Below, one piece after another: positions 26,722 through 60,380 of a stretch of 63,493 bases of DNA (positions are counted from its first letter, which is position 1; each line of letters opens with the position of its first letter). A program made the translations under genes and the position numbers. The notes beneath the pieces are model-generated. The model searched no databases. It was not told the DNA's origin and worked only from the letters and a program-made list of their open reading frames with translations. The DNA comes from an archaeon. GTDB taxonomy: Archaea; Nanobdellota; Nanobdellia; SCGC-AAA011-G17; GW2011-AR20. Location: contig JAZDEO010000021.1 of NCBI GenBank assembly GCA_043808705.1, forward strand, positions 1-63,493. Reading direction: 5' to 3'.

Positions 26722-26807
26722 TGCGCCAGCTGGGATTTGAACCCAGGTCACAAGCTTACTTCTTTAAAAATGGAAGGCTCGAATACTAACCACTGTACTA
26801 CTGGCGC
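26722..26807 (-). tRNA. tRNA-Gly(TCC) with a 14-nt intron at 37/38
   Basis: GCGCCAG-TA-GTAC-AGTGGTTA-GTAT-T-CGAGC-CTTCCA[TTTTTAAAGAAGTA]A-GCTTG-TGAC-CTGGG-TTCAAAT-CCCAG-CTGGCGC-A. That is 72 nt of mature tRNA plus 14 nt of intron. Confidence 0.85.
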
Positions 26808-32865: not shown

Positions 32866-33001
32866 AACTTATAAATCGACGGTAAAATTGATAATATAAA
32901 ATAATATAAAGTAACCACCGAAAGGTTTATAAATAAGTTTTAACTTCAAAATAACAACATAAAAAATCATAATAAAATTGAAAACTAGGGGGTTTTAAAA
33001 A

Positions 33002-34357: not shown

Positions 34358-34423
34358 ACTTATTAAGTTTTTTCTTTTTTTATTTTATTTCTAATCTAAT
34401 TAATATGACCAATACATTTTAAG

Positions 34424-34699
34424 ATGGCAAAACTATTTTGTTGGTATAACCCTAATAGACCTAAAAGAATAAGTGAATTAAGTATTATACTTATTAGAGA
34501 TGAAACCACTACTTTTGGAGAAATTAGAACAGCTTTGGGTGCTCAACAGATTAAATCAAGACTATATAAAGACCCTATAGATGATTCTAAATCTGTTAGG
34601 TGTGGTTCTTTTAATTTTTTGTATGAAAAAATTTTAAAAGAGGGAGAATTTGAAGAAAGATGTGAAAATTACAGGAAAGTGTGTTTAGAATTAAAATAA
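34424..34699 (+). CDS. Hypothetical protein (91 aa)
   Basis: ORF only. Confidence 0.4.
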   Translation: MAKLFCWYNPNRPKRISELSIILIRDETTTFGEIRTALGAQQIKSRLYKDPIDDSKSVRCGSFNFLYEKILKEGEFEERCENYRKVCLELK

Positions 34700-34906
34700 A
34701 ATTAGTTTATTGTTAATTATTTCTGTTATTTTCTATTATTTGTTTATTGTTTAAAGTCAGCTATTAAGATTAGCTTATAAAATAATCTTTGGATTTTTAT
34801 AATATTTTATTCTATATTATTTATGATTAGATATATCTTTTTTACTATAGTAATGTTTTTATATAGCTTGTTCTTTTCATAAAGTAACAAAACAAGGTTG
34901 TTAACA

Positions 34907-37559: not shown

Positions 37560-40500
37560 TTATATCTTCAGAGAAACTACTTTTGAAATTCCTTGTTGCA
37601 TTGAAACTCCATAGATTTGATCTGCTTCTGAGATAACAGCATCATTATGAGAAACAACTATGTATTGGGCATCTTTAGAATATTGTGTTATTAATTTAGA
37701 GAGTTTATCGGAATTTGTTTTATCAAGAGCTGCATCTACCTCATCAAGTAGATAAAATGAAGCTGGTTGATACTCTTGTATGGCAAATATAAATGCTAAA
37801 GCTGTTAATGTTTTTTCTCCTCCTGATAAGGATCTCACATCTAAGTATTTGTTACCGGATATCTTTACTATAACGTCAATACCTGCATTTAAAGGATTTT
37901 TAGGGTCTTCTAATTCAAAATAGGCAGAACCTTTTGTGGATAATGAAACAAATATCTCTTTAAAGTTTGATGCTATAACATCGAAAGTTCTTATAAATAG
38001 GTCTGTTTTTTTGATTTCTATCTCATTCATCATTATCAAGACATCTTCTTTCTCTATCTTTAGTTTTTCAGCTTTCTCTAATAATTGATCATAATCGTTT
38101 TCAAGCTCTTCATAAATCTCTAAGGCTCTTAAGTTGACATTGCCTATGCCTTGTAATGTTTTCTCGTTTCTTTGTATCTCAAACCTTATTTCGTCTATGT
38201 TTATATTTTTCTTTATCTTTTCATTCTTTAATGGCTCGAATTCTTTGTCTAGAGCTTCTAGTTCAGCCAATAATTTTGCTTTATCAAAAGATACTGTATT
38301 TATTTTTAATTGAACAGCCTTTATTTTCTCTTCTTCCCTTACTAAAGAGGTTTCTTTTTGCTGAATAAATTCATTTATCTTGTTTCTTTTTTCAAATAAG
38401 GACTTGAAATTAGTATAGAACATCTTTTCCTTTTTCTCATTTTCCTTCAATACAGAATTTTTTTCTTTAATCAATTCATTTAATTTAGATATCTCATTTT
38501 TAAATGACTCCATCTCTTTTTCATTGTTATTCATTATTTGGTTTATTTTGTTTGTTTCTTGTTGATGGAAAGAAAGCTGTGTATTAATGTTCTTTATTTC
38601 AGAATCTAGATTAAAGATTTTTTCCCTAATGGCTTGATATTGCTTTTCTTGTTCTGTTATAGATCCTATATTTACTGTTTGTTTTTTTACCTTTAATGAC
38701 TCCAGACTTTTATTATTAGATGCTATTTCTTTTTCCTTGTCTGTTACTAATGAATTAAGCTCTTTAATCTTCTTGTTTAGCTCTTGTTTTTCTTTATTTA
38801 AATCCCCTATAGGTAAAGAACTTTTTTCTATCTTTATTATTTCAGCTTCTAAGTCTGCTTTTTCCTTCTTAAATTTATAAATTAAATTTTCATTATCAAT
38901 TCTTTTTTGCTCTGTATTTGAGACTAGTGTCTTTAAAGAAGAAACTTCTGTTTCTAATTTTTGTATTTTGTCTGAGAAGTCAATTTCTTTAAATGCAATG
39001 CCTCTAGATTTTCTAAAACCACCTATCATGGCTCCTGATGTTTCTGTTAAGTCACCATCTAAAGTGACCATTCTTATTTCACCTATACCTATATTTCTGG
39101 CTGTATTTAGATTGTCTACAACTAATGTAGAACCAAAAACATAAGAGAATATATTTTTGAATTTTGGATCAAATTTTATTAAGTCTATAGCAGAACCAAA
39201 TACATCTGATTTTTTATCAAACTTTATTGAAGGACTTGATTTTATCTTGTTTAATGGCAAGAATGTTGCTATCCCTAATTTATTGTCTTTTAGGTATTTA
39301 ATACATTTTGCTGCTATTGCATCATCCTCTACAACTATGCTCTTTAATCTAGGACCTGCTGCAACCTCTAAAGCTAATGAATATTTTTTCTCTACTTCTC
39401 CTAGTTCAGCTACTATATTATAGATTCCCTTGATTCCAGACTCTAGAATCTTTGATGTAGCCAAAGAGTCTAAAGTAAGCTGCTTAGAGGAAATGCTTTG
39501 GATGTTTAGTTTTGCTAGATCCTCATTTTTGTCTACAAGGGTTTGTCTTAGATTAGATAATTTTACAGATAATGCTGAATCCTCATTTAAGGCTTTATTT
39601 AATTCCTGATTCTTTTCCTTAAACTTATTCTTTAAGTCTTTTATGTCTACTAAAGAAGAGCTTTCAATCTTTTTGTCTATGTCTTGAAGCTGGTAGTTTA
39701 ATTTATCAAATTCTCTTACAAGATTTTGCTTTTCCTCTTGTATTTTTAGTATAGCTGATTGAATATTATCTATTGATGTTTCTATATTTTCCTGGCCCTT
39801 TACATTATACTTTTCTCGTAATGTGTTAAGTTCCTTTAGTAACTTAGATTCTGATGAAGATCTTTCTGTTCTTTCTTTCTGTAAATCCTGAATTGATTTC
39901 TTTAGTTCTTGTATCTTTAAATTAAGATCCTTATCATCTAACTTAATTTGAATATTTCTTTTCTGTATCTTTTCTACCTCAAGTTTACAATTCTCTTGTC
40001 TTGTTGTTTTCTTTAATAGGTCTGTTTTAAAGTCCTCTGTATCTTTATGAAGCTTGACTTGTTCTTGTTCCCCTTTTTGTTCTATTTCCTGATTTATTGA
40101 AGAAATTTGATCCTTATATTCCTTAATCTTTAACTTTATTTCATCTATTTTTTTTGTGATTTCATCTATCTCTTTTTGATTTGTGTTTATTTTAGAGTCT
40201 ATATCCTCTCTATTATCTGTTTTTCCCTTTATTTGTAAACTTAAGTAAGTAGCCTTATTCTCTTTAATGTTTTTTTCAATGTTTCTATATTCTAAAGCTT
40301 CGTCTCTTTCTTTCTTTAAGTCCTTTAATCTTGATTTTCTCTCATTTAGGATTATTCCAGCTTCCCCTAATTTAGATTCAACTTTATCCAGTTCATTTAA
40401 AGCCTTAAGCTTTTTTTCTTCATAAATTGAAATGCCTGCTATCTCTTCTATTATCTGTCTTCTCTCTAATGGTTTCATTTCCATGAATCTTATAATGTCA

Positions 40501-42572
40501 CCCTGAAGTATTATGTTATGGCCCTCTACATCTATCCTTGCAGATGCTAGCATGTCTGTTACTTCTTGTTTGTTCATTACTGTACCGTTTAATTTGTAAA
40601 CAGAAATGCCTGATCTTTTTAATATCCTAGTTATTTCTACTTTTTTGTCATCTATTGCAAAATCCTTACTGGAGTTATCAAATACTATTGAGACTTCTGC
40701 TTCTTTAGCTGGTTCTCCTAATTTGCCGCCATTATAGATCAAATTTATTGACTTTTCTGCCCTTAAGCTCTTGGCTGAGCTTTCCCCTAGAACAAAACAG
40801 ATCATGTCTATAACATTAGAGTTATGCACAAATATTCCATTACCAATAAAATTATGGCAATTTGGTATTGTTAAGTCATAAACATAATCTTCTCCTTTTA
40901 CCTTTTCTATAGAGGTTATTTTATCCCAGAATATATCTGAAGAGGATATGTTTTTTAATATCTGAATAATTTCTAAGGCTTTTTCTAGTCTTTCTGATGA
41001 TTCTTTTTTAAGAAAATCATAAAGATTCTTTAAATTATTTTGTTTTGCATTAAATAAGTTTTTAGACCAATTATCTGTTATTGTTGATCTTGAAACATTA
41101 ATGTTCTTGGCTACATATGCATTTGATATATTTAATTCTTTTAAAAATTTAGTTAAGTATTTTTGATCTAATTGTATATTATCATTTAGGTTTTTTATTA
41201 TTTTTACCTTGTTTTCAAATATCTTTAGAGAGTCTATAACTCCTAATCTTGTTGGATTACATCTATTCTCATTATAAGCTGCAAATCTTGGATGTTCTTT
41301 TCTTAATGGTTTATAATCTATATAGAGAAGATTTCTACATTCTTTTATAAGGAAATTTACTTGTAAAGGTAATAAATCAATATTTGGATTTGGAATTATC
41401 TTTTTATTTAGAAATTTAGAAAGCCTTTCTTTTTTATGCTTACATCTTATAGGAATGTTCTTATATAACTTTATTAAATCTTGACTATTTTGAACATAAA
41501 GAAAATAATATTTCTTTTTTATCTTCTTTTCTGTATTTGTTGCATATTTTAGCTTTTCTTTTATTGATGAAACTATTCCAAATCTTAACAAAGAAAGCTG
41601 AACTTGATTAGCTAGATTTTTGCTTTGTGTACAATATTCAAAGCCCCTAGAATCTTTACCAACATAAGCATCACAGTCAAATAATCCAGCCAAGAAGTTT
41701 GCTAATACTGATTGTTTTGCAAATAGTATTTCTGAGGGAATATGTTTGTCTTCCTTGGTGTATTTATTTTTAAATAAATCAATAAAATAATCTGACAATT
41801 CTTTAGAATAACAATAGATATTGAATGCTTTTGATTTGTTCCAATTGCTTTCTGTGATCTTGTTAAATCTTAAACTTTTTGCTATTTTTTTGAAGTCATT
41901 TATTAATTCTTTATCTTGATTTATAAAATCTATTCTTGTTGATCTTACAATATAACCGTCTCCAACAACATAGCCTAGAAATCTTGCAATTTCCTTATTA
42001 AGGAATTTAGGAATATTATATTTTTTATTACTTTTATTAGTCTTATTAGTAATTTCTGGAAGTTTTATGTCCTTTTCAGGAAAATTTAATATTCTTGGGG
42101 TGGCAATTAAATCTGATTTCTTTAGATTTCTTACAAGTTCTGATTCTATTTTATTATCTTTAAAAATCATAACTGGATGACAACCAGTAGTTGTTACTTT
42201 TTTTCCTGTGCTTGTTGTTATTTCATATAGATAAGGCTCTCCTTTTCTTTTTATAAAGGCAGATATATCTTTTTCAACAACCTTCATGCTTTTTGGCTCT
42301 AAACCCCAGGTCTTGATATTTTCCTTATTTTCCGAAGTAAATACTCCATCATCTAACTTGATATGATAATTAGAATTATTTAAGGCAGAATCTACTATTT
42401 CACCTATATATTTTAAAGAGCCATCACTTAATAGGATTTCAGTATCCCATCTTGTGCTTTTTCCTGATCCATTTGGGCCTAGAATGAGATTAAAGTTATT
42501 ACCAAAAATAAGTTCTGTTTTCTTTGCGAATGATTTAAAACCTCTAGCTGATACGGATTTTATTATTGTCAT
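37560..42572 (-). CDS. smc: SMC chromosome segregation ATPase, interrupted by an intein
   Basis: N-terminal Walker A region, long coiled coils, hinge domain (GIYNIVAELGEV…IATFLPLNKI), C-terminal LSGGEKTLTALAF signature and Walker B LLDEVDAALD. The protein is 1670 aa including a 546-aa insertion. Confidence 0.9.
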   Translation of the reverse strand: MTIIKSVSARGFKSFAKKTELIFGNNFNLILGPNGSGKSTRWDTEILLSDGSLKYIGEIVDSALNNSNYHIKLDDGVFTSENKENIKTWGLEPKSMKVVEKDISAFIKRKGEPYLYEITTSTGKKVTTTGCHPVMIFKDNKIESELVRNLKKSDLIATPRILNFPEKDIKLPEITNKTNKSNKKYNIPKFLNKEIARFLGYVVGDGYIVRSTRIDFINQDKELINDFKKIAKSLRFNKITESNWNKSKAFNIYCYSKELSDYFIDLFKNKYTKEDKHIPSEILFAKQSVLANFLAGLFDCDAYVGKDSRGFEYCTQSKNLANQVQLSLLRFGIVSSIKEKLKYATNTEKKIKKKYYFLYVQNSQDLIKLYKNIPIRCKHKKERLSKFLNKKIIPNPNIDLLPLQVNFLIKECRNLLYIDYKPLRKEHPRFAAYNENRCNPTRLGVIDSLKIFENKVKIIKNLNDNIQLDQKYLTKFLKELNISNAYVAKNINVSRSTITDNWSKNLFNAKQNNLKNLYDFLKKESSERLEKALEIIQILKNISSSDIFWDKITSIEKVKGEDYVYDLTIPNCHNFIGNGIFVHNSNVIDMICFVLGESSAKSLRAEKSINLIYNGGKLGEPAKEAEVSIVFDNSSKDFAIDDKKVEITRILKRSGISVYKLNGTVMNKQEVTDMLASARIDVEGHNIILQGDIIRFMEMKPLERRQIIEEIAGISIYEEKKLKALNELDKVESKLGEAGIILNERKSRLKDLKKERDEALEYRNIEKNIKENKATYLSLQIKGKTDNREDIDSKINTNQKEIDEITKKIDEIKLKIKEYKDQISSINQEIEQKGEQEQVKLHKDTEDFKTDLLKKTTRQENCKLEVEKIQKRNIQIKLDDKDLNLKIQELKKSIQDLQKERTERSSSESKLLKELNTLREKYNVKGQENIETSIDNIQSAILKIQEEKQNLVREFDKLNYQLQDIDKKIESSSLVDIKDLKNKFKEKNQELNKALNEDSALSVKLSNLRQTLVDKNEDLAKLNIQSISSKQLTLDSLATSKILESGIKGIYNIVAELGEVEKKYSLALEVAAGPRLKSIVVEDDAIAAKCIKYLKDNKLGIATFLPLNKIKSSPSIKFDKKSDVFGSAIDLIKFDPKFKNIFSYVFGSTLVVDNLNTARNIGIGEIRMVTLDGDLTETSGAMIGGFRKSRGIAFKEIDFSDKIQKLETEVSSLKTLVSNTEQKRIDNENLIYKFKKEKADLEAEIIKIEKSSLPIGDLNKEKQELNKKIKELNSLVTDKEKEIASNNKSLESLKVKKQTVNIGSITEQEKQYQAIREKIFNLDSEIKNINTQLSFHQQETNKINQIMNNNEKEMESFKNEISKLNELIKEKNSVLKENEKKEKMFYTNFKSLFEKRNKINEFIQQKETSLVREEEKIKAVQLKINTVSFDKAKLLAELEALDKEFEPLKNEKIKKNINIDEIRFEIQRNEKTLQGIGNVNLRALEIYEELENDYDQLLEKAEKLKIEKEDVLIMMNEIEIKKTDLFIRTFDVIASNFKEIFVSLSTKGSAYFELEDPKNPLNAGIDVIVKISGNKYLDVRSLSGGEKTLTALAFIFAIQEYQPASFYLLDEVDAALDKTNSDKLSKLITQYSKDAQYIVVSHNDAVISEADQIYGVSMQQGISKVVSLKI
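40821..42458 (-). mobile_element. Intein (546 aa) with LAGLIDADG homing endonuclease, inserted in the SMC P-loop
   Basis: GPNGSGK|S-TRWDTEILLSDG…NCHNFIGNGIFVHN|SNVIDMICFVLG. Excision restores GPNGSGKSNVID. Block B TGCH is present. LAGLIDADG motifs are LGYVVGDGYI and LAGLFDCDAYV. Confidence 0.85.
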
Positions 42573-42608: not shown

Positions 42609-43469
42609 TTACCCCTTATTTTTTATTCTTTTATTATGCACTTTTAAATAAGTTCTTATGAAATATTTTAAAAAGTAATCTTCATCCTTTTGTAATGCTT
42701 TATAATAAGCTTTTCGCTTCTTTTTTTCTATAATCAACATAGGATAGCTATTATGCCATAATATATGGTTAATAATCAATCTTCCTATTCTTCCATTACC
42801 ATCACCAAAAGGGTGTATTCTTTCAAATCTATAATGTGCTTTAGCTGATAATTCCACTGGATTGATTTTAGATTTAGCAATAAAACTGATTAGATCATTC
42901 ATAAGTTGCTCAACATCCTGCCAGTCTGGGGCTATGTAATTGCCTATTCTTACAAGATAATCTCTATATTTTCCAGAAATATCTTGTTTTGTTTCTCCAA
43001 ATATTCTTTTGTGCCATTCTAATATTATTTTATTAGAGATTATCTCTTTATTTTTTAACATATCTAGGAATACTTTAGAATGATTTTCAGTTTCTTTTAT
43101 GTCTCTTAATGGTCTATTCGGAGCTATGTTCTCTTTGATAATCTCTCTTGTCTCTTCTAAGGTTATTGTAGAGCCCTCTATTGCATTTGTATTATAAGTA
43201 AAGGCTATAGATATTTCTTTTAATTCCTTATCTTTTACTGTTTCAGGATATTTCTTCCATTCTTCCTGGAAATTATTTTTTATCTTCTCTAGTTTAAGGT
43301 ATAAATCTTCTTTTTCTTCTTTTATTAATTCTTTTTTTAATAGATCTATATTTTTTGGAATCTCTTTCCCTAGATATTTTTCTTTGGTTATTATCTTACT
43401 TCCTTTTCTAAATGAGTGCTGCAAATAAAGATATTCTTTATTTCCTTTTATTTTTTTTATAATTCTCAT
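42609..43469 (-). CDS. Fic/DOC family protein (AMPylase-type)
   Basis: Fic motif HPFGDGNGRIGR. An upstream TNAIEG matches the (S/T)xxxE(G/N) inhibitory helix motif. Confidence 0.85.
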   Translation of the reverse strand: MRIIKKIKGNKEYLYLQHSFRKGSKIITKEKYLGKEIPKNIDLLKKELIKEEKEDLYLKLEKIKNNFQEEWKKYPETVKDKELKEISIAFTYNTNAIEGSTITLEETREIIKENIAPNRPLRDIKETENHSKVFLDMLKNKEIISNKIILEWHKRIFGETKQDISGKYRDYLVRIGNYIAPDWQDVEQLMNDLISFIAKSKINPVELSAKAHYRFERIHPFGDGNGRIGRLIINHILWHNSYPMLIIEKKKRKAYYKALQKDEDYFLKYFIRTYLKVHNKRIKNKG

Positions 43470-43621
43470 ATAATATATTACCATTACAAAATATTTAAAT
43501 GTTTCTATTTTAGGATTTTTGTAATGATAAGTTTAATGGTTCTAAAAAAATCGATTGGTCTTTTAGATTACTTATTAGTAACATAAATAACTTTTGGTAT
43601 TTTAAAATAATTAGACTAAAT

Positions 43622-44920
43622 TTAACTTGGATCAATAACTCTGCCTACAAATAGCATATTTCCTGTACTTTTTTCCTGTATTATAAATATGAAGGGATGG
43701 TCTGCATTAAATACTTTTGGTGGTTCTGGTGGTGGACCACTTGAACCAGATTTCATTTCAACTACTGTTGCTGCTGCCGCCTCTGTCCCATATTCTGCGA
43801 CCTCTACAAATGTCTGATGAATTACTTCATCAATATAAAGTTCGCCATTTGGACTCATAACTGTTGGTGGGCTCATTCCAGTAAAATCAGCATCGGGGTA
43901 CTTAAATGCTGTTGGCATTCCCATTTCTTTAAGGTCTTCTGCCATGAAATACTTGGTTTCAAACTTAAATTTGGGTAGAGCTACAACCACTTCTTCATTT
44001 TTCATGTTATCTTTCCAATCCTTAAGGTTGTTTATTGTAAATATGTTTTCGATTTCACCTATGTTATTTTCTTTTGGCAATATTATTAACATAGAAAGCT
44101 CATCTCCAAGGTAAGGCATTTCTAAAATCTGTAGATTATCTGTTTCTCCATAATTGAAATAGCTTGTTTTATGCATCATTTCAACCTCTTTATTTTGTCC
44201 TGAATTTAATCTAAAGATTCCATCTCTTGTAATTTCTACATCAAATTGATCTGACCAGTTAGCCTTAAAGTACACTGCGTTTGTAAGTACAAGTCTTGTC
44301 ATATCACTAAGAATTCCTTTGGGTATTATGTCTTTTATCTTCCCGTTTGTATTATCTTCAACCCAATTATTTATTGTTTGTCTTGATTCCTCTGTATCTG
44401 TTTTAAAATCAAGGTTTGTTACACCGCCGCCATAATACTCATTAATGGTGTTAAAGTAATCCTCAATAAATGGATAATCCTCTTGAGCCCATAGGGCATT
44501 GGCTGTACTTAGCTTATAAGGCTTATCTTCCTTGTTTAGATTATTATATATTTCCGCAAAAGAAGACCTTATTGCATTTTTGTCTGATGTTAGATGAAGG
44601 ACTTGTTGCATTTCTTGTGCTGTATTTCCTTTTGCACCTTCATAAGTCATTGTTAATGCAGATGATATACTATAAGGAGAGAAGAAGATATTTTCATCCT
44701 TAGATTTATATCTTGAATAAAGGTCAATAGCAAATTGATTATTGGCATCTACAATAGAATTTATTCCTTCTTCAGTTGATTGACTATTGTTTAAAAGTAC
44801 AATTGGAGTATCAGGAATATTATCATCTGAGGGATTATTTTGATTGCATCCATAAGAAAATATGCTTAAAATAATTATTATAAACAAAAAAGAAATCTTT
44901 ATTGAATTCTTATGACTCAT
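43622..44920 (-). CDS. Serpin (serine protease inhibitor), secreted or lipid-anchored
   Basis: Hinge GTEAAAAT and C-terminal FNADHPFIFIIQ. The N-terminal hydrophobic segment ends in SYGC. Confidence 0.9.
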   Translation of the reverse strand: MSHKNSIKISFLFIIIILSIFSYGCNQNNPSDDNIPDTPIVLLNNSQSTEEGINSIVDANNQFAIDLYSRYKSKDENIFFSPYSISSALTMTYEGAKGNTAQEMQQVLHLTSDKNAIRSSFAEIYNNLNKEDKPYKLSTANALWAQEDYPFIEDYFNTINEYYGGGVTNLDFKTDTEESRQTINNWVEDNTNGKIKDIIPKGILSDMTRLVLTNAVYFKANWSDQFDVEITRDGIFRLNSGQNKEVEMMHKTSYFNYGETDNLQILEMPYLGDELSMLIILPKENNIGEIENIFTINNLKDWKDNMKNEEVVVALPKFKFETKYFMAEDLKEMGMPTAFKYPDADFTGMSPPTVMSPNGELYIDEVIHQTFVEVAEYGTEAAAATVVEMKSGSSGPPPEPPKVFNADHPFIFIIQEKSTGNMLFVGRVIDPS

Positions 44921-51113: not shown

Positions 51114-51234
51114 TTCTTGTTTAATTCTTTTTTATTTTATTTAATACCATTTTAGAATAGTAACAAAATGGTAAGCTTTAAATACTTGAATATTGTCCTT
51201 ATTTTAGTAGTTTTTGAGGTGATAGGAATAAAAA

Positions 51235-52290
51235 TTGAAGGGTCCTATCAAGATATTAAAGACATTAAGTTTATGTAATTGTTTTATAGTATTAGTTAGT
51301 ATTATTTTTTTGCTTAGCATTATTTCTTTAAATTCCTTAGATGTTTATGCATCAGAAAGTTATACTGCTTATGTTCCTTTTAATAGTAAAACTTTAATGA
51401 GCGATGATGGAAATATAAATTATTATCATCATGACTATTTGGGGAATGTTGTTGTTAAAACAGATAATGAAGCTGATATAGTATGGGAAGCTGACTATGA
51501 GCCTTTTGGAGACACATTTAATGAGCAAGGAAGCAATGAATTTAGATTTACTGGAAAGGAACTAGATGGTTCTGGATTGCATTATTTTGGAGCTCGTTAT
51601 TATGACAAGGAAACTGGAAGATTCATTTCTGCTGATAGTATTGAAGGGAATATTGAAAAGCCTCAAACATTGAACAGATATTCTTATGTTTTGAATAATC
51701 CTTTAAAGTATAATGATCCTACTGGAAATGTTCCTGGTAATGCAAATAGTGATTTTGTAAATCCTAGTGTACAAAATCTTGTGGTTGAAGGTTCTATGCC
51801 TGATGCACCACAGTCTATTAAAAATACATTTGAGGGGGCTTTAGTTTATGGTTCTATATTTGATTCTATTCATGTTAACGTTGGAGCAGGTGTTAGAGCT
51901 AGTGCATTAGAATTCACTCCTGTAAACTTCTTATGGAGCAGTGAAAGTGAAAATCCTTATTTAACAACTGATTTTAATCCTGGACTTAATGTTAATGGTG
52001 TTAAAGGAAAAGTAACAGATGATAGTTATGGCTTTGGTGTTAGTGGACCTCCTGGTTCTCTTAGTGTTAGAAGTTATAATAATGGTGCTAGATCAGTTAC
52101 TGTAGGAATACCTGGTTTAAATGCCGCTACTCCTGACAACACATTTAGCGTTGGTGTTAGTCCCTCTGTAACATTTTATACATCTGAAAAGGGTTTAGAA
52201 AAAAATCTTGGCAGATTAAGAAATACTGATATTAATCTGCCTTTTTTTGATTTCTCAGGTGAAGATCCTTGGATGGGTGGTGGAGAATGA
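51235..52290 (+). CDS. Signal-anchored mini-Rhs: RHS repeat-associated core tip plus ~190-aa C-terminal variable domain
   Basis: TTG start with GAGGTGA upstream and a hydrophobic N-terminus. YYHHDYLGNVV…ADYEPFGD…FRFTGKELD…HYFGARYYDKETGRFISADS…LNRYSYVLNNPLKYNDPTG is the canonical Rhs core ending in DPxG. A Gly-rich unknown domain follows. Confidence 0.8.
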   Translation: MKGPIKILKTLSLCNCFIVLVSIIFLLSIISLNSLDVYASESYTAYVPFNSKTLMSDDGNINYYHHDYLGNVVVKTDNEADIVWEADYEPFGDTFNEQGSNEFRFTGKELDGSGLHYFGARYYDKETGRFISADSIEGNIEKPQTLNRYSYVLNNPLKYNDPTGNVPGNANSDFVNPSVQNLVVEGSMPDAPQSIKNTFEGALVYGSIFDSIHVNVGAGVRASALEFTPVNFLWSSESENPYLTTDFNPGLNVNGVKGKVTDDSYGFGVSGPPGSLSVRSYNNGARSVTVGIPGLNAATPDNTFSVGVSPSVTFYTSEKGLEKNLGRLRNTDINLPFFDFSGEDPWMGGGE

Positions 52291-53099
52291 AGAGATTTTT
52301 AGCTTATACAGGTTTAACAGCATTATTATCAACACTTTTACTTATACCTAAAGATAGTTCAACAGGTGATTTTAGGAAAGTTCAAAATTCTCCTATTGGT
52401 CCGTATGCAAGTGGTCTTTTAAATGCAGAAACTGTTGGTGAACAAATTGGATATTCAAAAGGCATTGATTCTATTTTAGTTAAGGAAAATAATCAAATTA
52501 TGAAGGATAGTACTGTAACTCCTGAAGAGGCTTCTATGTTTATTAAAGATTATAGAGATGAATTAGAACAAAGGTTAAGGACTGGGAAGGATGGCAATCC
52601 ACAATTTTTTTATTCAACAGCTCATGCTTATCTATTTTCAGGAATTCATTCATTACTTCTAGAAAATAATAAAGGATTTAATGAATTGTATATTTCAAGA
52701 GATTGTTTTAAAAGCGCATTTGAGAGATATTATGCTTCTATTGTTTCTGGAGGAGTACAGAATGATTCTGATAAAGTAAAGCTTCATGATGCAACCATTT
52801 CTGCTGGATCAGGATATTATCAAACTTCATATTATTTGGCAGTTAATTTCCTTAAACAAGCTGAATCTTTTGCAAGTGATGATTCTTTAGACACTGTTGC
52901 TGTAAAAGAATATTATGGATTAGCTAAAAAAGAATTAGATGATTTATATCTTACCATGAAGGGAATTTATAACATGAAATTAACAGGAATAAATCCTCAA
53001 TGGAGAAATAGTCTTTCATTTGATGATAATAAATTACAAGAATTATATCAAAGGTTAGATGATATAGGACAAGAGATCGGTGTTTATGGGGAAAAATAG
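52287..53099 (+). CDS. Hypothetical helical protein with N-terminal hydrophobic segment, translationally coupled to the Rhs-core gene
   Basis: ATGA start/stop overlap at 52287-52290. Begins MKRFLAYTGLTALLSTLLLIP. No recognisable family. Confidence 0.6.
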   Translation: MKRFLAYTGLTALLSTLLLIPKDSSTGDFRKVQNSPIGPYASGLLNAETVGEQIGYSKGIDSILVKENNQIMKDSTVTPEEASMFIKDYRDELEQRLRTGKDGNPQFFYSTAHAYLFSGIHSLLLENNKGFNELYISRDCFKSAFERYYASIVSGGVQNDSDKVKLHDATISAGSGYYQTSYYLAVNFLKQAESFASDDSLDTVAVKEYYGLAKKELDDLYLTMKGIYNMKLTGINPQWRNSLSFDDNKLQELYQRLDDIGQEIGVYGEK

Positions 53100-53102
53100 A
53101 AA

Positions 53103-56100
53103 ATGATGAAGATAAAATCAAAAATAAAATCAAAGATATTAGAATTAAGATCTTGTTTATTTTGTTTATCTTTAATTTTTATTTTAATGAGTTCTGTTTC
53201 AGCAACATTAGAAATTTCTGGTGCTAATGATTATGAATCTGGTTTTGATCCTGATAATGTTTATAAGTTATCTGAAACTGATATTGTTAGCCCATCTTCG
53301 GGAACATTTATTATTAAGGATACAGATGTCTATTTACCTGGAAAAAATGGTCTGGATTTAAAATTAGAGAGAACTTATAATTCTGGAGTATGGATCAATA
53401 GGATTAATGGAGATCCTTCTAATGACAATATTGGACAATTAAAGGAGTTTAGTTATTTAGGGATAGGATGGCAGCCGTTTAGTTTTGGCATGTTAAGATT
53501 AACCTGGTCACAAGGACCATCATCAAGTTTCTTTTATCCTGGCGGGAGTTATTTAGAATTTGGAGATGGTAATCAGTATAAAATCTTTTTAGATCAAACA
53601 GGAACAGGTTATTTAATAGAAAATCATCCAGACTGGAAACTTGAAGTAATTCCTGGAGGTAGTTGGCCTGATTACAGACTCATTAAAGAGGACGGTACAA
53701 TTTATTTCTTTGAGGGGAATGGATGTATGGCAAATACTATAACCTTATCTTTTATGGGTTCTCCCACCAATGTTGGAACATCTAAATATTGTTATGTTAC
53801 TTCAATAACAGATACTAATGAAAATAGTATAAGCATACATTATAAAGATATACCGGCACATTATGGTTCTACTTGTGAAACTGGTTGGAGTGGAACTAAT
53901 GAAAATGTAATACTACCACAAAATTCTGGGGCAATAGATTATATTGTAGATAGCTTAGGAAGAGAGGTTCATTTTTATTATAACATAATACAGGATGACC
54001 CTTATCTTGTTTATGGATACGGTACTTGTTATATTGAGCATTATATTCTTGATAAATTAACATATAGTAATACAAATAATGAGTTGATAACTGTAGATTA
54101 TACTGTAACACAGTCTGATGAAGGAACATCTTTTCCATTAGGTAATACATTAGCCTGGGATGAACATGAATATAAATTAGATAAAGTTGAGATAAAGAAA
54201 GGAAACACTTTATTAAAACCAAAAACATATTATTATTATAATAATTATGGTGAACTTGAAACAGTAATATATAATAAGAAAAGTGAGTTGCCTGACTCTC
54301 ATTTAACTCAAGACAGTAAAGTTGTTTATGGATATGATAAAGTAAAAAACCAATATAGTGATGTATCTGCTATAAATCAAGCAGGTTATAGCAGTAGATT
54401 AAAAGATAAAAAAGTATATGATGGTATGAATAATATGTATGAATGGCAGTATAAATATGGAAACGGCCAAACATATTATGATAGTTCAAATGGTGCTTTA
54501 ACTCAAAGAACATTTTTACATTGCGATGACACGGCTAGTCCAACAGCCACAAATTGTGCTAGCTCATCAACAAGAGTAGGTCCTACAGAGACTGGTGGTA
54601 CAGTAATAAATAGTTATAAACAGGTTAAGGTAATAAATCCAAATGGTGATTATGTTGTCAATAATTATTATGGAACAAACCAAGATTTAACTAATATATA
54701 TCAAGGATGGTGTGCTATTAGGGATACTTCTGGATTATTAAAAAATAGTACATTTTTTGAATCTAACGGAAATACTTTAAAGATTGATCAGTATGGGAAT
54801 GATTTTTATGAAGTTGACATTGATGTAAATGGATGGATAATAGTTCCTTATGGTGACAAATACTGTAAAGCATTATTAAAGGAAAAAAAGATAATAGAAT
54901 ATGACTCTTTAGGAAATAGTAAATTAAAACATTCTGAATCTTATAGTTATGGACATTATGTAAGTGGTGTTGTGCCTTGGATGCCTGTTTGGGTTCCTGA
55001 TCCATATGATAATATAAAATCATATAGTGGGGGCGGTTATATAGTTGATAGAGCAGAATCTTCAGGAATAGCATATACTTTAAATTATACCTATGAGAGC
55101 AATGAAGATTATAAAGAAAAGAACGTTCTTAATAAGGTTGAATTAAAAAAGAGTATTGCTGGATATTCTGCTCCTTGTCTTGGTGGTGGAAGTTATAATG
55201 TCTCAAAGATAAATAATGAATATGATTCTGAAATAAAAGGTAATATTATATCTGAAGAGCAAACAGGAATACAATATATTAATTTTATAGAAAAAGATAT
55301 TACTATTACTAAAAATTATGAGTATGATGATTATGGTAATGTAATAAACGAGATATATCCTAATGGAAATAATTTTGAAACAAGATATGATAATGGTTTT
55401 GATGCATATCCAAGTTCTGGATGGAATGATGAATATGGCTCTGAAAGCAATCCTGCATGGGAAAAAGAATATTATGATAATGGGTTATTAAAGCAGGAAA
55501 ACAATAAGAATAATGGAATTACAAAATATTATTATGATGATTTAAACAGAATAAAAAAGATTGTTTATCCTGGAGATACTGAAACTCAGTCAAGTTTAGA
55601 ATACACTTATTATGATTTTAAGAATAGTGTAAAGGTTAAAAGTAAAAAAACGAATAATGTTTACAATAACGACATTTATTACTTTTATGATGGTCTCGGA
55701 AGATTGATACAAAATAAACAGAATAATGTTGATGGAGATGTTCTTGTTTCAAGCATAAAATATGATGGTATTAATAATAAAATTTATACTTCTGAAAACT
55801 ATGTTGTTAGTGGCAGCTCTTCTACTTACAGTGTGCCTAATTGGTTTAATCTAATATCTCAAAATAAGGTTAATAGTTATGAATATGATTTTCTTAGTAG
55901 AGTAACAAAGAAAACAGATTTTGATAATACTTTTATTCAAATAAAATACGGTCCTTTATGGAAAATAGTAATAGATGAAAATGGAATTAAAACAAAATAT
56001 GATTATGATGCATATGATAGATTAGTAATGGTTGAGGAAAATTATGTTGAATGTAATAATAATGATGTAAGACCTTGTCCTAAACAAATTGGCGTATGTG

Positions 56101-57272
56101 AAGATAGTGAACAGACATGTAGCAATGGGGTGTGGCAAGATTGTGATTATGGAAATAATTATTGGTATTATGAAGTAATGTACGGAGAAAATACATTTAA
56201 ATGTGTAGATGATTTAGATAATGACTGTGATGGTTTTACAGATAATGAAGATAAAGATTGTTCTGAATGTGAATATACTCTTCATATGCCTGGCAGTTAT
56301 GGAACTTATAAACAAACATCTAATTATTGTGTAAAGCAGGCTGGTGTGTGTGAAAATTCACAGGGTTCTATGAAATATGAATTTGGAGATAGTTTAGTTT
56401 ATCTTTGTACAGTCTATGATTATGGGCAAGATTATCAAAGAATTGAGGTTAATTGTAATGATGACCTAGACAATGATTGTGATGGATTAACTGACGAGAG
56501 TGATGACTGCAATAAAATAATAACACAGTATCATTATGATTCTTTAAATAATTTAATAAGGGTTGTTGATCCTCGGGGAAAGATAATTGAAAAATACTAT
56601 GATGGATTAAACAGATTAAAATATAGTATAAGTTATGACAAGGGATTAACAGAATACATGTATGATAATAATGCAAATATAGTTGAGAAGATCACAAACA
56701 ATCTTTTAAAAAATAATAATTTTGAAAATTTAGATGAGTTTTGGATTTTTGATTCTGGAGTTAGTCTGAATAGTAATTCTTATTTTGGTGAATATAGTGT
56801 AAAGGCTAGTGGAAATTATAAATACGCTAATCAGGAAGCTTATATTTTAGGTTCTCAGGAATATATCTTGAGTTTATATGCAGAAGCTGAAAGTAAAAAC
56901 TTAGGAGTTATAATATACTTATATGATAAATATGGAAATGAAATAGACCCTGATTCTGTATCTATAGGAACTGGTTGGAGTCCTGGTTGTGGTGCTGATC
57001 ATCATTGCTGGTATTCTGGATCTATTCCAGTAGAAGAACAGTATTCAAGAATAATCTTGCCTTATTTTAATACTCCTAGTGGTGCTAATAAAATTAAGAT
57101 AGGAATAGGGGCATCTGTTACTGGTTCTGGTTATATTTATATTGATGCTATACAATTAGAAAAGGGAACAGAAGCAAAACCTTATTCCTTAACAGGATAT
57201 GAGTATAATGCATTAAATGAAGTTATTGAAACAAGTTATCCTGGATTGGTTGAAAATTGGGTTGGGATATAA
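53103..57272 (+). CDS. Secreted YD/RHS-repeat protein (1389 aa) with inserted Cys/Asp-rich modules and a CBM-like domain
   Basis: Signal peptide. Many YD repeats (YEYDDYGNVINEIYPNG, YYYDDLNRIKKIVYPG, YFYDGLGRLIQ, YDYDAYDRLVMVEE, YHYDSLNNLIRVVDPRG). Motifs CVDDLDNDCDGFTDNEDKDC and CNDDLDNDCDGLTDESDDC. A jelly-roll-like segment ends YIDAIQLEKG. Confidence 0.85.
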   Translation: MMKIKSKIKSKILELRSCLFCLSLIFILMSSVSATLEISGANDYESGFDPDNVYKLSETDIVSPSSGTFIIKDTDVYLPGKNGLDLKLERTYNSGVWINRINGDPSNDNIGQLKEFSYLGIGWQPFSFGMLRLTWSQGPSSSFFYPGGSYLEFGDGNQYKIFLDQTGTGYLIENHPDWKLEVIPGGSWPDYRLIKEDGTIYFFEGNGCMANTITLSFMGSPTNVGTSKYCYVTSITDTNENSISIHYKDIPAHYGSTCETGWSGTNENVILPQNSGAIDYIVDSLGREVHFYYNIIQDDPYLVYGYGTCYIEHYILDKLTYSNTNNELITVDYTVTQSDEGTSFPLGNTLAWDEHEYKLDKVEIKKGNTLLKPKTYYYYNNYGELETVIYNKKSELPDSHLTQDSKVVYGYDKVKNQYSDVSAINQAGYSSRLKDKKVYDGMNNMYEWQYKYGNGQTYYDSSNGALTQRTFLHCDDTASPTATNCASSSTRVGPTETGGTVINSYKQVKVINPNGDYVVNNYYGTNQDLTNIYQGWCAIRDTSGLLKNSTFFESNGNTLKIDQYGNDFYEVDIDVNGWIIVPYGDKYCKALLKEKKIIEYDSLGNSKLKHSESYSYGHYVSGVVPWMPVWVPDPYDNIKSYSGGGYIVDRAESSGIAYTLNYTYESNEDYKEKNVLNKVELKKSIAGYSAPCLGGGSYNVSKINNEYDSEIKGNIISEEQTGIQYINFIEKDITITKNYEYDDYGNVINEIYPNGNNFETRYDNGFDAYPSSGWNDEYGSESNPAWEKEYYDNGLLKQENNKNNGITKYYYDDLNRIKKIVYPGDTETQSSLEYTYYDFKNSVKVKSKKTNNVYNNDIYYFYDGLGRLIQNKQNNVDGDVLVSSIKYDGINNKIYTSENYVVSGSSSTYSVPNWFNLISQNKVNSYEYDFLSRVTKKTDFDNTFIQIKYGPLWKIVIDENGIKTKYDYDAYDRLVMVEENYVECNNNDVRPCPKQIGVCEDSEQTCSNGVWQDCDYGNNYWYYEVMYGENTFKCVDDLDNDCDGFTDNEDKDCSECEYTLHMPGSYGTYKQTSNYCVKQAGVCENSQGSMKYEFGDSLVYLCTVYDYGQDYQRIEVNCNDDLDNDCDGLTDESDDCNKIITQYHYDSLNNLIRVVDPRGKIIEKYYDGLNRLKYSISYDKGLTEYMYDNNANIVEKITNNLLKNNNFENLDEFWIFDSGVSLNSNSYFGEYSVKASGNYKYANQEAYILGSQEYILSLYAEAESKNLGVIIYLYDKYGNEIDPDSVSIGTGWSPGCGADHHCWYSGSIPVEEQYSRIILPYFNTPSGANKIKIGIGASVTGSGYIYIDAIQLEKGTEAKPYSLTGYEYNALNEVIETSYPGLVENWVGI

Positions 57273-57274
57273 AA

Positions 57275-58936
57275 ATGATTAAACATAAAATAAAATCAAA
57301 GATTTTGGCTTTAATATTTGCAACTTTTCTATTAATTGGTGTTTTTTTTGTTGGTGCTGATGGAGAATTGATTAGTGATGATAATGGAAATAACAATATT
57401 AATTACGGTGAATCTATTGATACTAATATAGAACCGGGGTCTTGTACTTGTACTATAATAGGAACGGGATATATATGGCAGGGTTCTTATTGTGATTTGG
57501 CACCTAATGGAGACCATTGTACTGGAATTAATCAACCAAGTTGTAGTACTATAATAAATCCTCAATATCCTCAACTAATAGAGAGTTGTGGTTGTAATTG
57601 TATAGGACCAGATCCTGCATGTATTGAGGGACAAACACAACCTTGTCCTAATCAAAATGGGGTTTGTTCTGGATCTTTTGAGGTATGTAACCAATATGGA
57701 CAATGGCCTGGATGCAATACAAATACTTATACTAATTGGGCAAATTCTCATAATTGGGTATATCAGGCAAATAATGAGTTAACATGTAATGATAATCAAG
57801 ACAATGATTGTGATAATTTCTCAGATTGTTTGGACAGCAATTGTAATATTGATCCTTATTGTTTACAGGGAATCTGTTTAAACATAAATTATTATTACAA
57901 TGATGAATGTGATGATGCAGATGAAAGAAATAGCTGGGGGAAAATTTGTAAAGTTGAAGATTGTTCTAGCACTATAGAGTATTGGTATGATGACAGAGGA
58001 AATGTAATAGAGCAAAATTTTACAATTGATGGTTATTCTTTTATAATTGAATATGAATATGACTCCAGTAATAATTTAATAAAAGAGGAATTACCGAACG
58101 ACAAAGATATAGAATATTTTTATAATGAACTTAATCAGGTTGAAAGAGTTGAATATGATAATAAGGATGTAAGTATTTATTATACACAAGAAGGTTTTTT
58201 AGATAATCTAATTTATGAAAATGATGTTGATGTTGATTATAGTTATAATAATAGAAATATAGTTGATGAAATAAATATTGACTCTGGTGCTGAGAACTTA
58301 TTCAATAAGGAATATGAATATGATAATGTTGGGAATTTAAGATTTTTGAATGAGGATGGAAATTTACTGGCTGAATTTGTTTATGATAATTTATACAGAT
58401 TGATTAGTGTTGATGATGATAATTATTATGATTTTAATATATTAAATTTTCAATATGATAAATCTGGAAACAGGTTAAATAAAAATCAAGATGGAAATAA
58501 TGCTGTTTATAGTTATGAAAGTTCTAGCAATAGATTATTGTCTGTAAATTCTGGTTCTGGTTATAACCTTGAAATTTACGATAATGCAGTAGACAGTTTA
58601 CTTAGTTTTGATTATGATAGTTCTGGCAATTTAGTTAAGGTAAATAATGTCAAAAAATATTATTATAATATTGATAATATGCTTGTTTCTGTAGACATAA
58701 ATAATAATGGTTATGCAGATGAACAATATTCCTATAATTACAAAAATCAGAGAGTTAAGAAGGCTTATGGTTTAAGCCAGGGTCCTTATTTTTATGAAAA
58801 TTCTGGAACAATCTATTATGTTTATGACTACAAGGGAGATTTAGTATATTCTTTAAAGAAGACTTTGGGAAATACTCCTGTTACTGCTCCCACTACTGGA
58901 GCTATTTTAATGCCTGATACAGATGATGGTATTTAG
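57275..58936 (+). CDS. Secreted Cys-rich plus YD-repeat protein (553 aa)
   Basis: ATG at 57275 gives MIKHKIKSKILALIF, a paralogous leader to 53103. Has a Cys-rich N-domain with CNDNQDNDCDNFSDCLDSNC, then YD repeats (YWYDDRGNVIEQ, YEYDSSNNLIKE, FQYDKSGNRLNK, FDYDSSGNLVKV). No Rhs core motif at its end. Confidence 0.8.
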   Translation: MIKHKIKSKILALIFATFLLIGVFFVGADGELISDDNGNNNINYGESIDTNIEPGSCTCTIIGTGYIWQGSYCDLAPNGDHCTGINQPSCSTIINPQYPQLIESCGCNCIGPDPACIEGQTQPCPNQNGVCSGSFEVCNQYGQWPGCNTNTYTNWANSHNWVYQANNELTCNDNQDNDCDNFSDCLDSNCNIDPYCLQGICLNINYYYNDECDDADERNSWGKICKVEDCSSTIEYWYDDRGNVIEQNFTIDGYSFIIEYEYDSSNNLIKEELPNDKDIEYFYNELNQVERVEYDNKDVSIYYTQEGFLDNLIYENDVDVDYSYNNRNIVDEINIDSGAENLFNKEYEYDNVGNLRFLNEDGNLLAEFVYDNLYRLISVDDDNYYDFNILNFQYDKSGNRLNKNQDGNNAVYSYESSSNRLLSVNSGSGYNLEIYDNAVDSLLSFDYDSSGNLVKVNNVKKYYYNIDNMLVSVDINNNGYADEQYSYNYKNQRVKKAYGLSQGPYFYENSGTIYYVYDYKGDLVYSLKKTLGNTPVTAPTTGAILMPDTDDGI

Positions 58937-59025: not shown

Positions 59026-59109
59026 GCCGAGGTCGCATAATCTGGTAGTGCGCAGGACTGCTAATCCTGTTTCCTTCGGGATATCGGGGTTCAAATCCCC
59101 GCCTCGGCG
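59026..59109 (+). tRNA. tRNA-Ser(GCT), no intron
   Basis: GCCGAGG-TC-GCAT-AATCTGGTA-GTGC-G-CAGGA-CTGCTAA-TCCTG-TTTCCTTCGGGATAT-CGGGG-TTCAAAT-CCCCG-CCTCGGC-G. Long variable arm, discriminator G, 84 nt. Confidence 0.9.
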
Positions 59110-59253
59110 CTCTATTATAAATGGTGGCGTATTATTTTGAGTTAAAATTTAGAAAAAGAATTCTAGGTGTCTACAAAACAGTATAGATATAGTCACCCAA
59201 AAACGAAAGATTTATATACTACTATTAACTTTTAATTAATAGTTATTAACAAA

Positions 59254-59847
59254 ATGGAAATAGCAAGATTTAAGCAAATATTAAGAGTACTTTTAAAGGA
59301 TTTTTCAGTAAAACACACTATAACCTCTTTAGCAGAAGAGATTAATATAAGCAGAGTAGGCATTTGGAAAATTCTTAAAAAGATGGAGTCTGAAAATCTT
59401 ATTGTTTTATCTCAAATAGGAAGAGGAAAAACTAGTACTTTTATAATAAGATTAAACTTTGAAAATATCCTTACAGAAAAAAATCTTGAGTTAATACTTA
59501 CTGAGAATTCATTGAAACATGAGAGATGGTTAAACAGTTTTTCTGAGCTTAAAGAAAGAGTAGACTTTTTAATCATATATGGGAGCATTTTACATTCAAA
59601 AGACGCTAGTGATATTGATATTTTGGGTATTGTTTCTGAAAAGAAAAAATTTAAGGAGATTGAAGAAGTTCTTTTAAAGATTCAAAAAACTCAAATAAAA
59701 AAGATACATATTTTGAACTTTACAAATACTGAATTCAAGAATGAGTTATTAAAGAACAACAAAGTATTCATTGATGCAGTAAAGAAAGGAATTATTCTAT
59801 TTGGACAGGAAAGATTTATTAAGTTTATTAAAGATATTACAAAATGA
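59254..59847 (+). CDS. wHTH plus minimal nucleotidyltransferase (MNT-type) protein
   Basis: N-terminal HTH (ITSLAEEINISRVGIWKILKKME) and NTase motif IIYGSILHSKDASDIDILGIV. Confidence 0.75.
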   Translation: MEIARFKQILRVLLKDFSVKHTITSLAEEINISRVGIWKILKKMESENLIVLSQIGRGKTSTFIIRLNFENILTEKNLELILTENSLKHERWLNSFSELKERVDFLIIYGSILHSKDASDIDILGIVSEKKKFKEIEEVLLKIQKTQIKKIHILNFTNTEFKNELLKNNKVFIDAVKKGIILFGQERFIKFIKDITK

Positions 59848-60380
59848 TGAAAGAAGTAAAAGAATGCTTTATGAATGCATTAAAAGATGAGAAAAAAGGC
59901 AAAAAGCATAAAGGCCTTCTTATTGTTAAACAAGATATTAACAAAGCAAAGGAATATCTAAATAAGGCAAAGAAAAATTTGGAGTTATGTGATTTATACA
60001 GAAAAGAAGGTTATGATTACAAAATTCCAGAAGAATGGTTCTATACATTATATTATTGTGCATTAGCTATAATCTCAAGATTCGGAATAGAAAGCAGAAG
60101 CTAAAGATGTACAGCAGCCTTCTTGAGGTATGCAAAAGACAATAATTTAATAGATTATGATGACGAGTTTATTGACAGAATTATTGTATACGAGGAAAAG
60201 GATGAAAAATCAGATGTTGATGAAAGAGAAAAATCAAGGTATGGCTCTTCTGTAAAGAGTGAAGAGATAGCTAACAAATACAATTATATGACTGATGTGT
60301 GCAAAAGAGCAATTTCACAATGTGAAGAAATAGTGTTTTCTGAAAAACAGTTTAAGGTTCCTAAAGAGTTAATCCAATAA
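59844..60380 (+). pseudogene. HEPN-like partner gene interrupted by one in-frame TAA
   Basis: ORFs 59844-60104 and 60123-60380 are in the same frame, separated only by TAA at 60102-60104 (…FGIESRS*RCTAAFLRYAKDN…). ATGA overlap with the NTase gene. Confidence 0.5.

Follow-up and report, generated by a model that had tools for sequence, protein, structure and literature searches.

The toxins of Rhs, WapA, and Tc proteins are thought to be enclosed as a single chain, or a cytoplasmic BC pair, folds. Export of an Rhs protein by Sec has a known example in WapA of Gram-positive bacteria, and TcB/TcC is a known case of a split cocoon. For S. suis WapA, extracellular folding has been proposed for a Sec-exported Rhs barrel of separate fragments after autocleavage (PMC12704120), and classical polymorphic toxins have been reported to be rare in archaea (PMC3482391). 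Here we describe a locus of four genes, g1 to g4, that occupies positions 51235–58936 of a 63,493-nucleotide (nt) stretch of archaeal DNA, the whole of which is referred to below as the window (GenBank GCA_043808705.1, contig JAZDEO010000021.1, positions 1–63,493, forward strand; GTDB lineage Archaea; Nanobdellota; Nanobdellia; SCGC-AAA011-G17; GW2011-AR20). A preliminary description, made from the sequence alone, had proposed that four tightly packed open reading frames (ORFs) form an Rhs/YD-repeat locus in which the core-bearing gene is detached from the shell. All four ORFs are present and intact on the + strand, with separate starts, stops, frames, and leaders as read from the DNA, and the proposed translational coupling of g2 to g1 is evident in the overlap of the g2 ATG with the g1 stop codon (ATGA). 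The locus is real, conserved, and native to its archaeal contig, and it falls within the Rhs/YD polymorphic-toxin kind rather than representing a new kind. We read it as a four-gene operon of a DPANN archaeon that would encode a split, Sec-exported system of the Rhs/WapA type, in which a plug-toxin subunit joins the g3 and g4 shell in trans; we regard this reading, which is drawn from sequence comparison, as having about an even chance of being correct.

Shell, core, and putative toxin do not share one polypeptide in this locus, since the core occurs in g1 only. The g1 product had been described as an Rhs core end with a hydrophobic N-terminus and a C-terminal domain (CT) of no known family, and profile searches agree. 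Residues 88–164 match TIGR03696 (Rhs_assc_core) with 83.5 bits (cut-off 32.5), residues 61–98 match PF03527, 59 amino acids (aa) precede the core, and the core ends in LNNPLKYNDPTG, as in the earlier description. Two aspartates, D134 (ADSIEG) and D161 (NDPTGN), are invariant in 31 homologues and are predicted to be catalytic; in Rhs1, the Asp of the second motif is catalytic (PMC8636562). When a hidden Markov model (HMM) of the core built from these 31 homologues was run against a six-frame ORF set of the whole window, g1 was the sole match, and g3 and g4 are therefore without a core. The gene for core and tip thus precedes shell genes neither of which ends in a core, as had been proposed. In the AlphaFold2 (AF2) model of g1, computed from the 31-sequence alignment, the predicted local distance difference test (pLDDT) averages 52; the model is confident only at the leader helix (residues 5–35, pLDDT about 87) and the core hairpins, and the CT lies below 50.

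The genes g3 and g4 had been described as a YD-repeat protein and a Cys-rich protein with YD repeats, and both assignments hold. RHS_repeat (PF05593, cut-off 22) matches g3 with 52.6 bits, accompanied by a TIGR01643 match, and g4 with 27.5 bits; in g4, 22 Cys residues lie within aa 57–230. A custom YD HMM places repeats at aa 400–970 and 1141–1190 of g3 and at aa 232–518 of g4. Near the N-terminus of g3, aa 60–95 resemble PF20148 (DUF6531) with 22.5 bits, which is below the cut-off of 24.1, and the g3 orthologue P0123 gives a weak DUF6443 match. The AF2 model of g3 aa 35–985 (6-sequence alignment) has a pLDDT of 45, and its barrel is not closed. The top 42 Foldseek matches of this low-confidence model are all YD-shell proteins, the best E value (about 1e-18) is reached with type VI secretion system (T6SS) Rhs effectors, and teneurins are matched as well; the similarity to Rhs shells is local only, with TM scores of 0.1–0.2. 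A search of PDB sequences with the C-terminal domain of g3 returned nothing significant.

Sequence comparison indicates that g3 and g4 together make up a single shell rather than a shell each, because a fused version exists and because both are colinear with single shells elsewhere. In locus L003, a single ORF (2144–3967) runs from g3 sequence, which stops at about aa 557, straight into g4 sequence, which begins at about aa 35, and the second leader is absent; this ORF is without the last ~830 aa of g3, including the Cys-rich and jelly-roll-like domains, and as it comes from a single Logan contig it may be a misassembly. Elsewhere the shell is one core-less protein, of 2091 aa in L006 (unclassified archaeon) and of 1758 aa in L087 (Diapherotrites), and in both cases the alignment runs through g3 first and then g4, with g4 matching the C-terminal part of the L006 shell at E=5e-24 and aa 219–525 of g4 matching aa 1212–1521 of the L087 shell at E=1e-32. 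The stretches of DNA that code for the g3 and g4 leaders share 78% identity over 41 nt, a likeness that points to copying of the g4 leader from g3. The g4 tail, YYVYDYKGDLVYS...TGAILMP, is conserved as YYIYDIKGDMVHS...GGAIFMP in L086, so that g4 would appear to end where it does by design.

The order g1-g2-g3-g4 recurs in three other lineages, which answers the question of gene order in homologous loci that the preliminary description had raised. These are L004, L003 (a Logan assembly), and L001, whose sequence is that of L086, a 128-kb contig from the Nanoarchaeota metagenome-assembled genome (MAG) GCA_018830825.1. Two unrelated neighborhoods are seen, one with PolX and tRNA-Ser and the other, in L086, a glycosylation and radical-SAM cluster, with g1 directly following the PolX or the radical-SAM gene. 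Across the four lineages g1 is 45–80% identical. Its N-terminus (MKGPIK, a hydrophobic stretch, and an AXA-like site) is conserved, and translation starts at the same position with TTG in the window, GTG in L004, GTG in L003, and ATG in L086, which excludes a broken 3' fragment. Relative to the L086 copy, identity is 73.8% for the g1 core, 52.6% for g3 (P0123, Nanoarchaeota MAG), 49.8% for g4, 31.0% for the CT, and 27.6% for g2. Searching with g3 retrieved one close relative; GTDB species representatives gave no match, and JGI metagenomes gave only L001. Directly after g4 in L086 (15547–16080) lies a gene without counterpart in the window; its 177-aa product has a transmembrane segment at the N-terminus and carries a JAMM/MPN-like motif (HSHPLKHCLPSEKD).

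These data also bear on the idea that g1 is the displaced 3' end of a once full-length rhs gene in a decaying locus, or that the segment arose through chimeric assembly or insertion of bacterial DNA. The last hairpin of g4 (YYVYDYKGDLV) duplicates the first core hairpin of g1 (YYHHDYLGNVV), as might follow a duplication of a 3' end; a tRNA-Ser lies directly downstream; and the tetranucleotide correlation between the module and the remaining window is 0.936, lower than for any other segment tested though comparable to that of another surface-protein segment. Against this, g1 has its own Shine-Dalgarno sequence, start, and leader at the same position in all four lineages, the g4 tail is conserved, all ORFs are intact, and classical bacterial orphans are leaderless and lie downstream of the main gene. 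The GC content of the module (0.28–0.31) equals that of the contig, its relative synonymous codon usage (RSCU) correlates at 0.966 with 14 other contig genes, and an independent ENA contig, L004, bridges PolX-g1-g2-g3 at 84, 79, 73, and 65% identity. The contig had been called archaeal and DPANN-like; its class I CCA-adding enzyme has its named best matches in Nanoarchaeota (68%), Woesearchaeota, and Aenigmarchaeota MAGs, and the window also encodes a PIN-KH ATPase, an intein-containing SMC, and PolX. Because of the GC content and codon usage, the CCA-adding enzyme, and the L004 bridge, the sequence evidence places the segment as native to a DPANN archaeon of Nanoarchaeota/Woesearchaeota type, neither chimeric nor a bacterial insert, and a decayed or chimeric origin is very improbable and largely refuted. 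The exact g4 protein is not on record, and the g4-to-tRNA-Ser junction is without independent assembly support.

The tRNA-Ser(GCT) gene itself (59026–59110, +) starts 90 nt 3' of g4. No att-like direct repeats linking it to the left border of the module were found, and as none flank the module, the idea of an integrated element was dropped; the L086 module has no adjacent tRNA.

The window locus is not alone in its organization. We collected 80 genome loci with a core alignment. The bacterial loci mostly contain full-length Rhs genes of 1300–3400 aa followed by leaderless orphan fragments. The relatives of g1 (246 matches, mostly 270–600 aa, many from DPANN MAGs) consist of a leader, the core, and a variable CT, with few YD repeats or none. 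In 8 of the 10 archaeal locus types such a core-CT gene, or several, stands beside a core-less shell, in either order, core-first being commoner. A core-less shell precedes the leader-core-CT gene in L006 and L087; leader-core-CT genes come first, with the shell downstream, in L017 (Micrarchaeota) and L059 (Woesearchaeota, with tandem cartridges, as we call the leader-core-CT genes); leader-bearing pairs resembling TcB and TcC, in either order, are found in L029 and L046 (Methanosarcinales) and in L088, where two alternative cartridges precede one shell; and a core-first bacterial example is L049 (Nitrospirae). Split shell and core-CT genes with leaders therefore occur in Diapherotrites, Micrarchaeota, Woesearchaeota, Methanosarcinales, an unclassified archaeon, and a Nitrospirae bacterium. 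The claim that the system is differently organized thus stands insofar as the core-tip is separate, leader-bearing, and upstream of the shell, but the organization is not unique to this locus. Split Rhs loci are not described in the literature searched, whose coverage was without the main archaeal polymorphic-toxin survey (Makarova et al. 2019, mBio), and the window locus is one case of a broader practice among archaea, seemingly not yet described, of placing shell and plug-toxin in separate genes.

The position of the break is shared as well. The shells of L006 and L087 end at a "YYVYDxKGxLVY" hairpin and have a leader-core-CT gene immediately 3' of them. The last residues are SYYVYDLKGNLVYEK in the L006 shell and YYVYDYKGDLVYSLKK in g4, nearly the same motif, and the gene after the L006 shell supplies YYFHSDNLGS and the core, which suggests that the chain is broken at the same structural position in both. 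Cartridges are also multiplied: one shell stands with several alternative core-CT genes in L059 and L088. Arrays are found in a Woesearchaeota MAG (L059, 2611–12836, four cartridges) and a Steroidobacter MAG (L039, 3031–10465, at least four), and L088 (10001–13284) holds two with identical N-parts and different CTs. The cartridges in all three loci are each followed by small ORFs, and the arrays are likely a reservoir of new toxin-immunity pairs. In L087, a nucleotidyltransferase/HEPN pair follows the Rhs module (13648–14617); its likeness to a gene pair just 3' of the window module (59254–60104, +), a helix-turn-helix nucleotidyltransferase gene with a small overlapping ORF without Pfam match, is probably a coincidence, such pairs being abundant.

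We favor trans-assembly of a split system because the shells lack exactly what the neighboring gene supplies, and because both autoprotease aspartates are invariant and the linkage survives changes of order and neighborhood. The main rival, which we judge unlikely, is that g1 and g2 form a self-contained secreted toxin-immunity pair in which the RHS core serves only as a self-cleaving release module, g3 and g4 being independent YD surface adhesins that share ancestry and an operon with it. Such a pair would suit the size of the class of short leader-core-CT proteins, the location of the protease residues of Tc and Rhs proteins inside the core itself, and the adhesin-like accessory domains of g3. 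It would also suit the two archaeal exceptions to shell linkage: L044 and L002, the latter visible on one side only, have leader-core-CT genes without a shell within 10 kb. It would leave unexplained, however, why shells have lost precisely the core that a neighboring gene provides, why distant lineages have the break at one and the same hairpin, and why the two remain linked in most archaeal locus types despite changed order and surroundings.

The CT of g1 and the g2 protein diverge fast and in parallel (31% and 28% identity to the L086 copies, against 74% for the core), and their genes are translationally coupled. Parallel divergence of this kind is the sequence signature of a toxin-immunity pair or of another tightly co-evolving pair, and g2 is most likely the cognate partner of the CT, as a putative immunity protein. 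The g2 protein has no match in Pfam/TIGR profile searches; it is 73% identical to its L004 copy, and its orthologues retain the motifs SRDxFxxAF..Y and FLxxAE. The L086 orthologue of g2 bears a lipobox-like LLYSC. For the CT, there was no Pfam match, and a CT profile retrieved nothing significant from PDB sequences. A phmmer search of 1.84e9 representatives gave two clusters at E<=1e-3, one the orthologue and the other the repeat protein P0121, which was rejected as a spurious match. The CT is still detectably homologous to that of L086 (E=4e-5), and both have FDSxH and PGLN motifs.

DPANN archaea depend on host contact. The locus could encode a teneurin-like surface or attachment structure of an episymbiont rather than a toxin, with CT and g2 as a fast-evolving ligand-partner pair for host recognition. 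This would fit the lack of a toxin signature in the CT, the predicted extracellular location of every part, the position of the L086 copy within a cell-surface glycosylation cluster, and the teneurins returned by Foldseek. Nevertheless, an autoprotease motif that is intact and invariant argues for release of the CT, and homologues fuse the same core to recognized toxin domains, e.g., PF15533, PF15607, and the HNH domain PF01844. Moreover, related loci (L088, L044) show the classical polymorphic-toxin pattern, in which alternative CTs, several per locus, each have a small leaderless ORF behind them. We therefore regard an attachment structure as quite improbable.

The preliminary description had credited each of the four proteins with its own Sec-type leader. 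By a hydropathy heuristic, on which the predicted Sec export rests, this is plainest for three of them: the Kyte-Doolittle 14-aa maxima of g1, g3, and g4 are 3.31, 2.57, and 2.93, a hydrophobicity equal to that of leaders on membrane and secreted proteins encoded in the window, and AXA-like sites follow (VYA/S, VSA/T, and VGA/D, respectively). The g2 leader is weaker. Pfam scans of 44 window ORFs detected no PAAR, VgrG, T6SS, type VII secretion system (T7SS), LXG, or WXG domains, in line with the absence of such genes nearby as first described. An export leader on g2 suggests that the CT probably acts on the outer envelope or membrane face rather than in the cytoplasm.

Several other genes of the contig relate to the cell surface. 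A thioredoxin and a DsbD-like membrane protein (16334–17581, −) possibly form an extracytoplasmic disulfide system that could bear on the 22–28 cysteines of g3 and g4. Lgt (prolipoprotein diacylglyceryl transferase; 13619–14371, −; 229 bits) and Lit (lipoprotein intramolecular transacylase; 15690–16343, −; 107 bits) represent bacterial-type lipoprotein maturation on a DPANN contig. A second cell-surface gene cluster (30421–37522, +) encodes three large leader-bearing proteins in a row (814, 451, and 874 aa) with Ig-like, PKD, He_PIG, and FixG_C-type domains.

From the domain content, gene order, conservation pattern, and linkage across lineages, a model may be proposed for the export, trans-assembly, cleavage, toxicity, and target of the system. 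All four proteins would cross the membrane via Sec and fold outside the cell. Together, g3 and g4 would form one core-less YD shell, in which a long beta-strip is accompanied by an N-plug and by Cys-rich and jelly-roll-like accessory domains at the surface. The C-terminal piece missing from this shell would be g1, which contributes the final YD hairpins, an RHS core acting as aspartyl autoprotease and plug, and the variable domain of 187 aa. The g1 hairpins may extend the strip at the conserved terminal hairpin of g4, so that the shell is closed off by the core and the CT is held inside or tethered, and the core would then cleave after NDPTG (NDPTG/N). The accessory domains of the shell could bind a neighboring cell, either host or competitor, where the CT would be released, with g2 protecting the producer. 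A small, separate plug-toxin-immunity cassette would allow warheads to be exchanged or multiplied without touching the shell.

Several observations weigh against trans-assembly of a split toxin. Both AF2 models are of low confidence (pLDDT 52 for g1 and 45 for g3) and give no support for binding of g1 to the shell or for a closed cocoon. No experimental precedent was found in the literature for enclosure of a toxin in trans after separate export. The CT has no recognizable toxin fold or catalytic signature in Pfam, PDB sequences, or the 1.84e9 representatives, and the hydropathy maximum of the g2 leader is 1.75. In addition, the shell-less genes of L044 and L002 suggest that the core-CT unit may work alone, and the exact module occurs in only about four lineages.

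It is possible, if somewhat doubtful, that archaea, and DPANN lineages above all, build Rhs toxin capsules extracellularly from separately Sec-exported subunits, with a leader-core-toxin cartridge docking in trans at a conserved hairpin of a shell that has no core. An episymbiont could then load one shell with interchangeable warheads and direct them against its host or competitors, and the CT would be a new family of envelope-acting toxin with an exported immunity protein. If so, the mode of assembly and loading would be one not described for Rhs, WapA, or Tc toxins. A capsule completed and loaded outside the cell would alter the view of how toxins are encapsulated and exchanged, and it would offer a testable effector system for DPANN archaea, whose means of interacting with hosts are largely unknown. 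The leader-core-CT cartridges, up to four in tandem, are also a source of uncharacterized toxin and immunity domains, the CT of the window having essentially no relatives among 1.84 billion representative proteins.

The coordinates of the module are collected in Table 1. Elsewhere in the window, a tRNA gene (26722–26807, −; Rfam 57.6 bits) cannot be assigned by ARAGORN, which reports a four-base anticodon 'ttcc', and it may have an intron or an enlarged anticodon loop. The SMC protein (37560–42572, −; 1670 aa) carries a near-N-terminal intein with a LAGLIDADG homing-endonuclease domain. Unusually for a small archaeal genome, a full-length serpin (432 aa, 414 bits) and a Fic/DOC protein (291 aa) are encoded side by side at 42609–44920 (−). 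Finally, a 1309-aa ORF with a GTG start (2217–6146, +) has no Pfam match and a moderately hydrophobic N-terminus, and it lies in a stretch of raised GC content (0.37 vs about 0.28) and strong GC skew.

Table 1. Features of the g1–g4 module, in window coordinates unless given as residues (aa) of the protein named; slashes mark predicted cleavage sites.
Feature	Position	Strand	Remarks
Candidate archaeal TATA box, TTTAAATA	51177..51184	+	~50 nt 5' of g1 start; weak candidate by motif only, in an AT-rich region
Shine-Dalgarno-like GAGGTGA	51216..51222	+	11 nt 5' of g1 TTG
g1	51235-52290	+	351 aa, TTG start
g1 leader, aa 1-39	51235..51351	+	MKGPIK, hydrophobic stretch, VYA/SE
g1 terminal YD hairpins and RHS core (putative autoprotease/C-plug)	51352..51726	+	PF03527, TIGR03696; ends NDPTG/N
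g1 CT, aa 165-351	51727..52290	+	187 aa; fast-evolving orphan domain, putative toxin
g2	52287..53099	+	270 aa, ATG overlapping g1 stop; putative immunity protein or partner
g3	53103..57272	+	1389 aa, ATG, 3 nt after g2; shell part 1
g3 leader	aa 1-34		
g3 candidate DUF6531-like N-plug	aa 60-95		
g3 YD strip	to about aa 980		
g3 Cys-rich acidic (double-disulfide) repeats	aa 984-1136 (nt 56052-56510)		
g3 two YD repeats	aa 1141-1190		
g3 jelly-roll-like domain	aa 1197-1361 (nt 56691-57185)		weak match
g4	57275..58936	+	553 aa, ATG, 2 nt after g3, different frame; shell part 2
g4 leader	aa 1-28		
g4 Cys-rich region	aa 57-230		
g4 YD strip	aa 232-530		

Among described systems, the orphan rhs-CT cassettes resemble g1 in being short ORFs that start within the YD end and encode core and CT, followed by an immunity-like gene, and g1 probably originated as such a cassette. 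The cassettes, however, have no start, ribosome-binding site, or leader, lie downstream of the main gene, and serve as silent reservoirs (L007, L010, L044, L066), whereas g1 has a conserved Shine-Dalgarno sequence, start, and leader and lies upstream of the shell. A core-bearing full-length rhs gene was found neither in the window nor in the orthologous loci. The T6SS Rhs effectors (RhsA, Rhs1, Tse5, Tse15, and RhsP) are built from the same shell and core families and have the same autocleavage motif. The window locus differs from them in its Sec-type leaders, its split, and its archaeal host, and in having no PAAR, VgrG, Eag chaperone, or T6SS gene. The example of Tse5 indicates that an Rhs CT can be a membrane pore-former (PMC10684867).

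With the Tc toxins the window locus would have in common a YD cocoon of two polypeptides, a core subunit that bears a variable tip, and the scope for alternative core-tip genes per shell, and TcB/TcC-like pairs with leaders exist in other archaea (L029, L046, L088). The proportions are different: 97% of TcC proteins are 851–1050 aa long and make up about half of the shell (PMC7861908), whereas g1, with its 351 aa, would supply only one or two hairpins. SpvB, TcdB_toxin_midN, and the FG-GAP propeller, by Pfam, are absent from g3 and g4 in contrast to TcB, and are present in the L088 shell and in P0124. There is no TcA-like domain in the 44 scanned window ORFs, and the Tc gene order is B then C. 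Tc subunits are not known to have Sec leaders, unlike the leader-bearing parts of the window.

The last comparison is with WapA (B. subtilis; S. suis WapA-CT). Both WapA and the window locus, which has no LysM/cell-wall-binding domain (Pfam), sortase, or SecF-like partner, combine a Sec-type leader, a YD shell, an RHS core with a two-motif aspartyl autoprotease, and a variable C-terminal domain that is followed by a small gene, putatively cognate in the window, in both cases with no T6SS; the DUF6531-like N-plug of WapA has a candidate counterpart in g3. WapA is one polypeptide that is cleaved after export, whereas the window has two shell genes and a core-CT gene, each leader-bearing; here the pair of core-CT and putative immunity gene comes first, the immunity candidate bears a leader, and the CT is an orphan domain.

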